The notes under the pieces are model-generated. The model ran no database searches. It was not told the origin of the DNA and saw nothing but the letters and a program-made list of their open reading frames with translations. A stretch of 63,327 bases of DNA, the filler included, from Stramenopiles sp. TOSAG23-6 (Eukaryota): the NCBI GenBank assembly GCA_900128565.1. It is 45 parts of 45 records of this genome, joined end to end, with 100 filler letters (N's around TTAATTAATTAA, not from the genome) between each part and the next. Parts side by side here need not be neighbours in the genome. Positions count along the whole stretch, not along the records: positions 4,262 to 5,581 come from LT639252.1; 44 more parts are not named here. One strand, given 5' to 3'. Below are positions 4,351 through 63,327 of the stretch, in pieces (position 1 is the first letter of the stretch; each line of letters begins with the position of its first letter). The position numbers and the translations under genes are program-made.

Positions 4351-5481
4351 GGAACATTACTGATTCAGTTTTTTTTCGTGAGACATTTGAAAATTCTCGA
4401 CATTCTGAACATTCAAACCAAAGAAATAATGGGGAACATTTTGAACAAGTTGAAAGAGATGATTGTTGTGGTTGTCTCATTTCAAATTATGTATGTTTTA
4501 TGTGGTTGAAATATTATTTTTTCCAAAAAAAATTTCCAAAAAAAATTCCAAAATTTTTTAACAAAGATTTCAAAAAAAAATTCCAAAATTTTTTAACAAA
4601 GATTAAATGTTGAAATTTCATCATACTACATTATAGAATGGTCATGCTAGTGCAGTGTTTGATGTTGATTTTTGTTCAAGTGGACAATATAAAGGCCATT
4701 TTTTTGCTACTGCATCTCTGGACAGAACTGCTCGGTTATGGTCAACACTTAGAAAACGTGCATTTCGTGTTTTTATAGGTCACACTAGCGATGTTAGTTC
4801 CATATCATTTCATCCAAATGGAACATCAATTGTTACAGGTTCAAGTGATAAAACAATCAAAATGTGGGATATTCGATGTGCTGAGGAAATTACAACTATT
4901 TCAGGTTTTACTTCTGAAGTTGATGTAATTGCAATTTCTCCTAATGGGAATCAAATCGCATCTTCAGGACATGGTTATAATTGTAAAATTTGGGATGTTC
5001 GAAATGTTCATCATTCTATATGTACGTTTTTATTTTTTTTTTTCTTTGGATACAAAACATACAAAATTTCATACCTAACCATTTAAAAAAAAAATCCTAA
5101 TTTTTTTTTTATTCCTAAAAAAATTAAAAAAAAAAAATTTTAAATTTTTTAAAAATCCTAAAAAAAATCCTAATTTTTTTTCTTTTTCCAAATTATTTCT
5201 TGACAATACAGTATGCAAAGGACATTCGGCAAAAATAAATTCTTTATGTTTTAGTCAAGACGCTGAAATTCTTGCTTCGGGGTCTCAAGATTGTACGTTT
5301 TCAGAATGAATTTAAAATTGTTTTTTTTTTCGTACGAAATTTTGTACCTAACAAATTTCGAATTTAATTTTCGGATTTGGTCTTGTAAAAGCCCTAACCC
5401 TAATAACACGTCTTTTGAATATAAAAGACAAATCTTTCAAAAACCAATTAATTCATGGAGAACAAAATATACTCCAGTCAT
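4351..5481 (+). CDS. TAF5-like WD40 protein, C-terminal part (exons 4351-4490, 4637-5021, 5212-5292, 5364-5481)
   Basis: FATASLDRTARLWS..RVFIGH.SDV..FHPNG..TGSSDKT..MWD and terminal TKYTPV match TAF5. Confidence 0.75.
5293..5363 (+). other. Non-canonical GT-AT intron
   Basis: Restores WD motif ASGSQDFNFRIWS; no AG between the branch motif (5328-5352) and the RIW codons. Confidence 0.7.
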
Positions 5482-5842
5482 GTACGTTTTCATCATGATT
5501 TTTTTTTTTTTCAATTTTTTATACATAATTTTTTTTTCGTACGAAATTTTGTACCTAACAATTTTTTTTTTTTTTTTTTTTNNNNNNNNNNNNNNNNNNN
5601 NNNNNNNNNNNNNNNNNNNNNNNNNTTAATTAATTAANNNNNNNNNNNNNNNNNNNNNNNNNNNNNNNNNNNNNNNNNNNNATGTATTTTGGAAAAATAT
5701 TTCAAAAAAAAAACTTAAATTTGTTAGGTACAAAATGTACTATAAAAAAAAAAATTCGATTTTTTTGTAAAAAAAAAAACTTAAATTTGTTAGGTACAAA
5801 ATTTCGTACGAAAAAAAAATTAAAAAAACAACTAAAACATAC

Positions 5843-8626: not shown

Positions 8627-9700
8627 CTGTCATTAAACTCAATGGTTTATCAAAACTAACAAATCCATTCCCCAACAATGGACTACTAGGGTTAGGGTAA
8701 CCATCAAAAGTGGTTAATATGTTTCTTGACGATTGTTCTACAGTTTCATTATTTGTATTATTTAGAATTGTCTTTTTATTTTGTTTCATATTTCGTGTTT
8801 TTTCTAATTTCCGTTTTTGATAATTTTTGAAATATTTCTGTAATAATTTTGCTGCTTTTAAGTGAACCTTCAATCGCTCCTGTAATGTAAAAATTTTGTT
8901 GTTGTTGTTTATGATGAGTTAGTTGAGGATGTATACCTTTTTTTTTTTTTTTTTTTTTTTTATTTTAAATTTTTTTTTTTTTTTTTTTTTTTTAGGTCAA
9001 AAATTTCGTATTAAAAAAAAAAAAAAATTTTTTTTCGAAATTTTTTTTTAAAAAAAAAAAAAAAAAATATTTAGGTACAAAATTTCGTATTAAAAAAAAA
9101 AGTACATTGCTACTCGTAAATGTTCTTTAAGAGACATATATTTGCGTCTCCAAATAAATTCTAAAAAAAGTTGACCGGGTAACGGATCAGTACAAGTATG
9201 ATTTTGATGTTTTTCATAATTTTCTTTTTCTTTGTGTTTTTCATAATTTTCATAATTTTCTTTTTTTTTGTGTATTTCGTGTTTTTGTGATAAATCTAAC
9301 CAAGAACTCATTAAAACCGAATTATTAGAATGACCAGATATTGAATTTTTTTTCATTTTATCTAATAAAAATGACCAAGGAATTGAAACGGTACCTACTT
9401 TAATGGTAAAAAAATATATTTGATTTTTTTTTTGTTAGGTATATAATTAACTATGAAAAAAAAATTAAAAAAAAAAATTAAAAAAAAAAAAAATTTCTTA
9501 GGTACAAAATTTCGTATGAAAAAAAAATTAAAAAAAAAAATTTAAAAAAAAAAAAATCTTAGGTACAAAATTTCGTATGAAAAAAAAAATATCATCATAA
9601 AACATTAATCCATTGTAAACGTACATAATTCAGGTAATAAATCTTCGTGGAATCCTTTATTCCAACGATATATATTGTGAAACATATTTGTTGTATTCAA
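8627..9700 (-). CDS. Multi-exon hypothetical protein with IQ-like motifs
   Basis: KAAKLLQKYFKNY IQ-like segment; several intron motifs; junctions uncertain. Confidence 0.4.
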
Positions 9701-60670: not shown

Positions 60671-61793
60671 ACTAAATTTTTCAGGTGTTGGTGGGATATT
60701 CAAAATATGTGTTTTTGAATCATTATTATTCACTACTGTTGATATTCCTCTAGATTTAAACCGAAATAAATCATATACATTTTGATCTGATTTTGGAACA
60801 TTTGTACTATTTTCAGAATGTTTTTGAAAAAATTGATCTGATTTCGGAACATTTGTATTATTTTCAGAATGTTTCGGCGGCTTTAGTGTCTGATATAAAA
60901 ATATGCTTGTGCGATCAGCAGCAGAAAGAATTGAATCTGTAGAAATAGGCGTTTTAAATCCTAACTCTGAATTCTTTCCGTTTTTATCAAAATCTGTAGA
61001 AATAGGCGTTTTAAATCCTAACTCTAAATTCTTTCCGTTTTTATCGATATTATTCATAGTTTTATTACTCAATTGAGAATTCTTTACGTTTTTATCAATA
61101 TTATTCATAGTTTTATTACTCAATTGAGTTAATTGAGTACTTGTTTTATCAGTAGATTTGTCTTTTGAAGATCTAAAAGAAGAAAAACGAAAGAACCTTA
61201 TATCTTCTTGTTGTTGCATTTTGGCAACTTTTCTTGTTTGATGACCACGTTGAATAGCTTGAATTTTTGTTGCAGCTTCCTCCTGTTGTTGTTCACTTTT
61301 TTTTTTTTCTTTGTTTTCTTTGTTTTCTTTTTTTCTTTGTTTGTTCCATTCAAGAAATTTTCCCGCTTCATTTGGTTTTTGTTCGTTCCATATATTAAAT
61401 AGTTTTTCAAATATTTCTACATATTCATTTGCCATTGTAATTAAATTTGTATCTGTTGTAGAGATTGTTTTTTTATTATCTTTCAACAATTCAACTAACT
61501 TGTTAAATTGAGGCATTTCACTTGAATAGTAGTCTTTAATTACACCATTAAAATACTTTAATTTTTTTTTTAATTTGTCACCAAGGTTAATTGAAGGAGT
61601 ATTGTTTTTATACATCATTAAAGCAAGTCGGTAATATTTACAAAACTCTTTCATCTTAAATTTTAATTCGTTACTCATGTATTTTGGAAAAATATTTCAA
61701 AAAAAAAATTGTTAGGTACAAAATTCCGTACGAAAAAAAATCATACAAAAAAAAAAATCAAACATACATTTTGTCTGCTTTTTCTTGTGCTTT
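60671..61793 (-). CDS. IQ-motif protein fragment
   Basis: AATKIQAIQRGHQTRK; GT-AT intron 61677-61767. Confidence 0.65.
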
Positions 61794-62106
61794 GTATTGT
61801 GAAGAAATATTTTTTTATTCAATGAATCGTTAGGTATGAAATGAACCATTAAAAAAAATATATATGTAAAAAAAAAAAAGTTGTAGAAGAAAAATTTAAA
61901 AAAAAATTAAAAAAAAAAAAAATTAAAANNNNNNNNNNNNNNNNNNNNNNNNNNNNNNNNNNNNNNNNNNNNTTAATTAATTAANNNNNNNNNNNNNNNN
62001 NNNNNNNNNNNNNNNNNNNNNNNNNNNNAAATATTTCAAAAAAAAATCGTTAGGTACAAAATTTCGTACGAAAAAAAAATCGACTTTGAAAAAAAATAAA
62101 ACATAC

Positions 62107-63327
62107 GTGTACATTATAATCTCCATCACCAAGTAGAGTGTTTAATCTTTTCATTCTTTGTTGATCCCATTTTCTATCATTAAAATCTATGAAACGAATT
62201 GATGGACTGCCATCTGTATGAACTCCGCCAATACAAAAGAAAGAGGAATCATTGACGTCATTTGTTTGAAGGAAATTACAACACGTATACGTATTTTGGA
62301 AAAATATTTTAAAAATGTTTTTGTTAGGTACAAAATTTCGTATGAAAAAAAAATTAGAATTTGAAAAAAAATTAAAACATACACTGAGGATCGCGAGATG
62401 TAGAAGGTTCCCATATTAAAGGCGGCTCTTCACTGCCTTGGTTATTTAGTATTGTTGGTGCACTTGGAACAATATGTGATTTTCTAGTCCACGCTGCATC
62501 TGAAGCACGTGTTATTACTATACCGTTAGTTCCTTGTGGCATATGATAATTTATTATATTATCTGCAGTTTGGTTATGTGTTACATTTCGTTTTTTCGCT
62601 TGTGATGTCTTCTGTTCCGACATACGTTTTGATTTATTCGATAATTCTTTTGCTGCTGCTGCAAAAGCACTTGAAGCACATTCATATTCAATATCTTGAT
62701 CATTTATACACATTAATTCTGGTTCATTTGTCAATTGAAGATTTTGAATGTGTGTTATTTTTCTTCGCAATATATATTGTGAAGAAATATTTTTTTTTTT
62801 TAAATACAATTTTTGTTAGGTACGAAATTTCGTACGAAAAAAAAATTAGATAAAAACGTACATATCCAATGATAAAACCCAACCACGATCAAGAACACAT
62901 ATCATTTGTGTTGGATCACTATTTGGTATGCTAATATTTCGTATATTCACTTTCCGTAAAGATTTTGGAAGCAAACGACAAAATTCAGATGTTTCAATTT
63001 TAAAAAACATCTTCGGAATTCTTTTAGCTCCGAATGTTGGTACAGAAAGTTTTCTAATATCGTATCCAATTACACCTGTAGATGTACTACAATATACTTG
63101 ATTATAATGACCTATAGCTAAATTATTGATACGTATCTTTTTTGAAGTATTTTGAGATGACGTATTTATCTGATCTGAAAAAAGAGGGCGTTTTGATGAA
63201 CACCGAATGTCCCAAAGTCTAATCATTCCATGTACATCAACTGCAACAATACTATTTCCACCACGTACAGAATTACTATTGAAGCATTTCATACCGATAG
63301 TACCAACACGAGATCCGTTATTATTTG
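62107..63327 (-). CDS. WD40-repeat protein, internal exons
   Basis: G.IRLWDIR and VIGYDIR; introns 62772-62861 (GT-AT) and 62289-62382 (GT-GT). Confidence 0.65.

Follow-up and report, generated by a model that had tools for sequence, protein, structure and literature searches.

Why should nearly every intron of a eukaryotic genome carry a long, nearly palindromic motif of branch-site type, and does that motif bear on the loss of the terminal AG? The question is raised by a 25-mer at positions 5328–5352 of the DNA analysed here (the window, 63,327 bases in all), for which an initial annotation had offered two explanations: extended pairing with a modified U2/U12 snRNA or an SF1-like protein, compensating for the lost AG, or the footprint of an intron-generating mobile element (introner). 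The window is made up of some 45 contigs, each about 1.3 kb long, ordered by size and joined by N runs with a 12-base linker that places a stop in all six frames. Its GC content is 21–35%, and its long ORFs, read with the standard genetic code, encode eukaryotic proteins: a kinesin motor, an Arf-family GTPase, PP2C, a DENN domain, WD repeats and an eEF3-like ABC protein. Some contigs are duplicated, and the contig at 1422–2741 is its own reverse complement. A few motif copies are assembly duplicates, and identical contexts were removed before the block alignment and the motif-independent intron counts.

Copies, strand and extent of the motif

The window letters at 5328–5352 are identical to the 25-mer as originally quoted, which occurs in 11 exact copies (4 on the plus strand and 7 on the minus strand), while the degenerate consensus proposed with it has 35 matches (15 plus, 20 minus). 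Its core, GTACCTAAC, was found 68 times in the window with at most one mismatch, against a mean of 5.60 in 100 shuffles (s.d. 2.27, maximum 10). Away from the window ends there are 67 such matches, in 59 distinct contexts, and all twelve of the example positions given in the initial annotation are found among the core matches. Copies within one contig nearly always lie on the same strand, and the motif is missing altogether from 19 of the 43 distinct contigs. Strand relative to coding was counted in contigs whose ORFs clearly occupy one strand: there, 42 copies are sense and 3 antisense, in agreement with the claim of dozens of sense-strand copies and far from an equal frequency on the antisense strand, while 23 other copies lie in contigs without a clear coding strand.

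The motif had been said to occur in nearly every intron, and this is borne out by introns found independently of it (GTAYGTT, preceded by an ORF of at least 40 codons and followed by an early stop; n = 15). Eleven of these contain the core with at most one mismatch, compared with a baseline of 119 in 2000 random 160-nt windows; three more carry a decayed copy with two mismatches, and only the intron at 4491 is without one.

The earlier figure of about 25 conserved nucleotides was right in describing a long motif and too small in extent, as conservation reaches from about −20 to +10 around the core. Aligned over 52 copies, the conserved block reads as a T-run, then CRTASK, AAATTTY, GTACCTAAC and RA, with column identities of 79–100% apart from four variable positions; the core columns are 96–100% conserved, a value that is partly built in, since the copies were selected via the core. 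The columns that vary are those of the two CpGs in CGTACG, also spelled CA and TG, as well as AG or GT. Linked multi-base variants of the upstream half, namely CATAGTAAA, CGTAGTT or CGTAGTAC, and YGTAGGWAA, each recur in several copies, and some introns contain two to three motif units in tandem. A 16-nt degenerate form of the motif gave just single chance matches among the matches listed from prokaryote and viral collections, and a 20-mer form gave one match in genome_contigs and none in viral_contigs.

Intron plan and 3' ends

Nearly all introns in these contigs belong to a single stereotyped class, in which the motif forms the middle box. With the caret marking a splice border, the plan reads (A)T^GTAYGTTTT, a variable A/T spacer, T7–9 CRTASKAAATTTY-GTAC-CTAAC, a second variable A/T spacer and AAATATTTTTYCAMAATAC-AT^. 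The last of these, a second box lying downstream of the core, was absent from the initial annotation. Together the three shared boxes total about 60 nt per intron, and the consensus of the intron termini reads GTAT...ATAC. The motif is thus intronic and positionally biased, as the earlier account had it, with a fixed place relative to the 5' box and the 3' end; the core is mostly 38–69 nt 3' of GTAYGT. No 8-mers are shared among the spacers between 5' box and T-run (19 introns), and none in shuffles either, which makes this a low-power test.

A logo of 29 donor sites has A at exon position −2 in 16 and T at −1 in 21, followed by GTAYGTTTT; an exon end in AT^ compares with a background frequency of 0.09 for AT. 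GT is present at all 29 sites and GTAYGT at 27 of the 29, GT at positions 1–2 and 5–6 having been a selection criterion. The features at the original locus, and three further introns that illustrate the plan, are as follows.

5293–5301, plus strand: 5' splice-site box GTACGTTTT, after exon ...GAT T^; the upstream 71-codon ORF ends here in phase 1
5321–5354, plus strand: conserved block, made up of T-run, CGTACGAAATTTT, GTACCTAAC and AA (alignment A1, mean column identity 87%)
5348–5352, plus strand: CTAAC, putative branch site, with the presumed branch adenosine at 5351
5353–5363, plus strand: candidate 3' tail ...TCGAAT^ of a short intron, from frame analysis; in-frame, and gives WD-repeat spacing
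62289–62382, minus strand: example intron of 94 nt, with 5' box at 62382, core at 62331–62323 and 3' box AAATAT... at 62309–62289
30610–30766, plus strand: intron holding two motif units in tandem, with their cores at 30654 and 30713, and ending ...CATAATCCAT^, at a PP2C junction fixed by frame only
9431–9624, minus strand: intron holding three motif units in tandem, of which the upstream two read CTAAG and the 3'-most CTAAC

Removal of the example intron at 62289–62382 restores the reading frames, with 144 codons upstream and 110 codons downstream. The candidate short intron at 5293 would have only about 13 nt from branch to end, unlike the 35–53 nt found elsewhere.

When the 5' border is set at ^GT and the open frame is followed on either side, the 3' borders that stay in frame lie in constant register with the AAATAT box. 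For 10 of 13 introns, a border placed 21 nt from the start of AAATAT is in frame (chance, 1/3 each); among the misses, two introns need +22, and one is due to a false AAATAT inside the next exon. Conservation ends at the predicted 3' border, where coding starts. In the 17 introns with frame-defined ends the last dinucleotide is AT in 11, AG in 4, GT in 1 and TT in 1, these borders having been chosen as the in-frame position at the box end and so being not fully independent of the box. If exon and intron share their last bases, the border can slide by 1–2 nt with the product unchanged, and the intron at 61767 is possibly located at a start codon. On these frames, removal would occur mostly at GT...YAT, with YAG in the minority.

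Homology bears on four of these ends. The kinesin gene (35365–36671, minus strand) was spliced in silico and aligned to 16 full-length homologs, the best of which, P0001, shows 65% identity over exon 1; the DENN-domain gene was placed on Pfam coordinates.

36223–36335, minus strand: kinesin intron 1, T^GTACG ... ACTAAACAT^GCG, AT end; gapless against the closest homolog, P0001
35787–35910, minus strand: kinesin intron 2, CAT^NTATGTTC ... AAATATTGTAT^CAAG, AT end; gapless in 16 of 16 homologs
35424–35592, minus strand: kinesin intron 3, AGT^GTAAGT ... AAAAAAAG^GGT, canonical AG end, two tandem motif copies; serves as AG control
50376–50512, plus strand: intron of the DENN-domain gene, CT^GTACG ... 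ACAGTACAT^T, AT end; from Pfam DENN coordinates

At kinesin intron 1 (...AAACAT^GCG) the junction codon specifies Cys, which is also the residue in P0001. The junction residue of intron 2 (...TTGTAT^CAAG; first base N in both assembly copies) is Ser, with Ser or Thr in 15 of the 16 homologs, and the next in-frame border tested, three residues longer, would create a three-residue insertion relative to all 16. The AG-ended intron 3 is gapless in 15 of 16 homologs, P0034 being aberrant there. In the DENN gene, residues 26–169 (of 170) of exon 1 correspond to profile positions 4–109 and the Leu of the next exon to position 112; the gap from 109 to 112 therefore leaves room for exactly one junction residue, as ...GTACAT^ predicts, and the alignment to DENND1B in the PDB begins at the same Leu. 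Taken together, these comparisons of predicted proteins support AT ends for three introns (the first two of the kinesin gene and that of the DENN gene) and, with the 11 AT ends among 17, confirm the earlier suggestion that the AG had been lost. Other searches did not inform the junctions: the WD40 exon retrieved just generic multi-repeat proteins of no use for this purpose, protein searches with PP2C and DENN exons returned nothing at thresholds of 1e-22 and 1e-14, PDB searches with the PP2C exons and DENN exon 1 gave no matches, and a search with kinesin exon 2 gave chance-level matches only (E 0.38–1.1), to unrelated proteins and to no kinesin.

RNA libraries were compared with one 1.3-kb contig, 62029–63327, at a match cut-off of 90%. 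Between 739 and 873 assembled contigs per run from three marine RNA libraries match it. They pile up on the intron blocks only, matching over 36–42 nt before continuing into A/T-rich loose ends, and leave the exon bins empty, a pattern uninformative on expression of this contig. The block is massively multicopy in the three marine RNA samples, which says nothing on splicing. No exon–exon joints at 62029–63327 were present in the library contigs; two contigs of one library cross the exon–intron borders of the intron at 62289–62382 unspliced, and may be pre-mRNA or carried-over DNA.

Branch site, folding and spliceosome class

The last five bases of the core are CTAAC, which matches the standard U2-type branch consensus. 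Of 16 introns that bear the motif, 15 have CTAAC 35–53 nt before the 3' end, the exception being the intron at 5022, where decayed TCCTAA copies are nearer the end; in the intron at 62861 the distance from the true core to the 3' end is 45 nt. By sequence and position CTAAC would therefore act as an ordinary U2-type branch site. The initial annotation had placed the core between the U2 and U12 consensus sequences, an intermediate position that becomes unnecessary with CTAAC as a standard U2-type site, and a modified U2 is then not needed to explain the core. This does not account for the T-run and the approximately 20 nt preceding CTAAC, which are either read by something or inherited.

The introns have the GT donor and the CTRAY-type branch box of the U2 type, but in most cases not its AG end. 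That they might instead belong to the minor spliceosome, or to a hybrid U2/U12 class, is suggested by a superficial likeness of the core to the U12 branch consensus, and by some termini that can be written as AT...AC when both borders are shifted by 2 nt. Such AT–AC borders are not general, however, with A and T at exon positions −2 and −1 in only 16 and 21 of the 29 sites. U12-type introns have a 5' site of the type RTATCCTT and a branch-to-acceptor distance of about 10–26 nt; here, an RTATCCTT-type box occurs at none of the 29 sites, where the box is GTAYGTTTT, and the 35–53 nt from branch to acceptor lie outside that range. A search of the window found no U11, U12 or U6atac, Rfam at gathering thresholds gave no match of any kind there, and relaxing Rfam to E ≤ 1 over the window added a single chance lncRNA match and no snRNA. 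These introns are not U12-type, and we regard membership in that class or in a hybrid one as extremely improbable.

A conserved RNA hairpin, formed either by GUACGA/UUGUAC or by the palindrome TTTCGTACGAAA, might be the functional unit of the block. The consensus copy can indeed pair, and copies that keep CGTACG form a local stem in their minimum-energy folds. We aligned 51 of the 56 distinct copies, omitting those at 34576, 46147, 7949 and 8250, which have one mismatch and no upstream block, and one near-duplicate. Pairing of both stems is no better than in column shuffles: for GUACGA/UUGUAC 75.0% of cells are paired versus 74.3% in shuffled columns, with 140 of 500 shuffles reaching 75.0%, and for the palindrome 78.8% versus 78.1%, with 177 of 500 shuffles reaching 78.8%. 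The possible hairpin first proposed thus loses its footing, while the accompanying remark that the variants do not clearly co-vary is confirmed. Moreover, 26 of 46 distinct copies lack the closing G–C pair of GUACGA/UUGUAC, and a 3' partner shifted by −2 columns pairs equally (75.4%), so that there is hardly any chance of the hairpin being what is conserved. Folding at the scale of whole introns is equally unremarkable, with z-scores of −2.1 to +0.4 (mean about −1) in 10 introns. The consensus termini GTAT(G)TTTT and AAAA(T)ATAC are partly complementary; the intron ends are paired in 2 of the 10 minimum-energy folds, and a compensatory change is found in one intron alone (50376).

Origin of the introns and their place among known systems

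Our preferred reading, to which we give an even chance of being correct, is that the introns form an introner-like family, with a branch site provided by an internal block that they have inherited. An introner-like element would have brought along a 5' site, a branch site and a 3' box as it spread into AT-containing genic sites, the exon-side AT^ and the intron-terminal AT^ then being two copies of the target. The approximately 20 nt upstream of CTAAC would be inherited family sequence rather than an RNA hairpin, the palindrome would be an ancestral spelling now decaying at its two CpGs, and the 3' cut would usually lie 21 nt downstream of where the AAATAT box begins. Both the spliceosomal removal of these introns and their mobile origin are what we infer.

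The introner alternative of the initial annotation gains from the stereotyped ends, the AT^ on both sides, the variant subfamilies and the internal tandem copies, and stops short of proof. Mutually similar introns, a hallmark of introners, are represented by 59 distinct block copies; their similarity is confined to the boxes, as would also be expected under selection on signals. The dinucleotides flanking the introns, as a trace of target duplication, are identical in 6 of 17 introns against 4.3 expected (P = 0.16, permutation), which is not beyond the shared consensus. The initial annotation had further suggested comparing intron positions with those of orthologues. Eight of nine kinesin loci from other eukaryotes are uninterrupted at all three intron positions, which fits an introner-like family, but these loci are distant (36–42% identity to P0001), GC-rich and possibly intron-poor, and the comparison is weak. 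A metagenome scan with kinesin exon 1 returned best matches of 47–49% identity, hence no close relative, and the motif was in none of 80 loci. Within the data examined we saw no presence/absence polymorphism, extragenic copy or autonomous element.

The most serious competitor, possible though on balance unlikely, is a purely functional extended splicing signal, in which the introns are old and unrelated by origin, selection has kept the 25–31-nt block, and a changed U2 snRNP, an SF1-like factor or another RNA compensates for the loss of AG; an snRNA with an extended complement to AAAUUUUGUACCUAAC would favour such co-evolution. Conservation limited to boxes, with spacers that vary in length and sequence, fits this reading, as do the hundreds of RNA-library contigs that match just the 36–42-nt block and then diverge. 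The block also adjoins the branch site on its 5' side, a region in which the introns of other organisms are contacted by components of the U2 snRNP, and the fixed 21-nt cut from the second box in 10 of 13 introns resembles measured acceptor selection. Yet the most variable positions, the two CpGs, are inside the block and vary without compensation, the linked multi-base variant groups resemble descent, and upstream tandem copies persist within introns. Nor do we know of any precedent among splice signals for about 60 conserved nucleotides per intron, and the exon-side AT^ is hard to explain through selection on signals alone. A bolder version of measured selection, which we consider doubtful, dispenses with reading of the acceptor dinucleotide altogether: the spliceosome would measure the 3' cut from the boxes, usually 21 nt after AAATAT and 35–53 nt after a branch module of 25–31 nt held by a factor of its own or by a lengthened duplex with an snRNA, and would accept YAT, YAG and even YGT or YTT.

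It could also be asked whether these segments are spliceosomal introns at all, or whether they are instead eliminated from the DNA or excised through some other RNA pathway, as in IES-like elimination or euglenid-type excision. The mostly non-AG 3' ends, termini resembling an inverted repeat, (AT)GTAT...ATAC(AT), and the failure to recover a spliced junction at contig 62029–63327 would all be expected in that case. Against it stand the GT at 29 of 29 sites with its GTAYGT consensus (GT at 1–2 and 5–6 having been selected for), CTAAC at branch-site distance with YAG or YAT at the end, ends that pair in just 2 of 10 introns, segments contiguous with exons in RNA libraries (where DNA carry-over is possible), and long ORFs under the standard genetic code. 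Such a pathway therefore seems to us quite improbable.

The introns share traits with several known systems. Yeast-type introns have strict U2 signals, GTATGT ... TACTAAC ... YAG, and the GTAYGT 5' box, the CTAAC-ending branch box with TAC just upstream and the 35–53 nt to the end are similar here. Unlike in yeast-type signals, there is an extra C (TAC-C-TAAC), about 20 more conserved nucleotides upstream with a T-run 5' of them, a YAT acceptor in 11 of 17 introns and an exon end in AT^ rather than AG^. In Trichomonas and Giardia introns, branch site and acceptor are fused into an extended motif, which terminates in AG directly at the acceptor. The introns described here likewise have a long conserved motif towards the 3' end that holds the branch site, but 35–53 nt separate the branch box from the acceptor, and the mostly non-AG end follows a 3' box of its own.

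The available sections of PMC11282704 describe introners or transposon-derived introns in Micromonas, Aureococcus, Polarella, Amoebophrya and Fritillaria borealis, give as hallmarks similar copies, TSDs, TIRs and non-canonical ends, and note that introners are more frequent in aquatic organisms. As in those accounts, we find many short sense-strand introns that share sequence, splice signals that the putative element would itself carry and termini that partly resemble inverted repeats. Non-canonical 3' ends, some of them co-opted from the target duplication in introners as described there, are found here too. In contrast to introners, similarity here is restricted to three boxes with unrelated spacers, and the 2-nt AT duplication is statistically inseparable from the consensus. 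The non-canonical introns of F. borealis are AG–AC and AG–AT (PMC11282704), and GT...AT, the majority type here, is not among the introner end types mentioned in those sections. Many non-conventional introns of euglenids and hemistasiid diplonemids are without canonical terminal dinucleotides (PMC12621601, PMC11282704). The frequent lack of the canonical terminal pair is a likeness to our introns. Whereas extensive pairing draws the ends of non-conventional introns together and GT is not conserved in them, our introns have an invariant GT, a branch box and ends paired in just 2 of 10 folds. Searches of article full texts turned up no description of the motif (ACCTAAC, TACCTAAC, UACCUAAC) or of protist GT–AT introns. 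One single-cell stramenopile genome paper, possibly on another organism, is silent on unusual introns in its accessible part. Relative to the known systems this is a new variant, combining introner-like uniformity, a strict GT donor, a standard branch box and a mostly AT acceptor placed by a conserved box.

If our reading is true, an uncultured marine eukaryote has almost all its introns of one stereotyped kind, mostly AT-ended, and would be an independent addition to the few lineages that tolerate non-canonical ends genome-wide (Fritillaria, Amoebophrya, euglenozoans). Because the donor is still a clean GT and the branch box of textbook form, the change is isolated to the acceptor, which would make this a good natural system for studying 3' splice-site choice, and one in which to ask whether introner-like mass intron gain drives change in the spliceosome. 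Should cutting indeed be measured from the boxes, the whole genome would follow a ruler-type rule for its 3' splice sites. In practical terms, gene-prediction models that assume GT–AG will fail at most introns of this genome if the reading holds. The host organism appears to be marine, as DNA runs labelled seawater metagenome contain up to 0.48 of the words sampled from the window's last 10 kb.

Duplicated and inverted contigs

The window (1-63327) consists of about 45 length-sorted contigs of about 1.3 kb each and does not represent a single locus. Contig joints appear as N runs flanking a 12-base linker that carries a stop in all frames (e.g. 5626-5637 and 43746-43757). Several contigs in the window are exact or near duplicates of one another, in the following sets.

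Duplicate contig sets in the window
11355/12772/14189: duplicate contig set
21267/22681: duplicate contig set
35365/36772: duplicate contig set
29737/40992: duplicate contig set, 98%

The contig at 1422-2741 matches its own reverse complement with 100% identity across 1320 bases, a perfect inverted chimera that probably arose artificially, during amplification or assembly; the copies of the conserved intron motif at 1761 (+) and 2402 (-) within it are one copy, counted twice. At the very end of another contig, two opposed motif cores form a near-palindrome (16879-16914, GTTAGGTAC ... GTACCTAAC), which may be a variant unit or the product of inverted chimerism.

Tandem motif units and joined intron boxes

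In two minus-strand introns with several tandem motif units (9431-9624 and 17986-18133), the upstream units carry CTAAG and the 3'-most copy CTAAC. Intron 3 of the kinesin gene (35424-35592, two tandem copies) reverses this order, its downstream copy reading CTAAT, and such multi-unit introns are too few to tell which motif copy is used.

In six RNA-library contigs (four from library X9 and two from X12), ...AAAATAC runs straight or almost straight into GTATGTTTT... at 62106 and 62291, in a minus-strand gene. The joint sets an intron 3' box against an intron 5' box, with sides of 22-24 nt and the letters in between unread. These joints could derive from tiny-exon loci elsewhere, from tandem units or from circles.

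Coding-region features and telomere-like repeats

In exon 2 of the kinesin gene (35912-36220, minus strand), the motor has an insertion bearing a conserved HP..C.C..C motif, which is also present in the aligned kinesin homologues and is followed in the window's kinesin by an asparagine/lysine-rich repeat. Matches in the PDB point to the KIF9/KLP1 group for this protein.

In the eEF3-like gene, the frame shifts at 38900-38960, where the first ABC P-loop segment is expected: ...YGII passes directly to ...PTQDEV in a different frame, and no motif-type intron is found there. The gene may have undergone a frameshifting deletion or be a pseudogene, or the contig may be chimeric.

Telomere-like TTAGGG units occur within the intron of the DENN-domain gene (50376-50400), immediately 3' of its 5' box (GTACGTTTAGGGTTAGGGTT), and CCCTAACCCTAA lies inside a WD-repeat exon (5388-5399).
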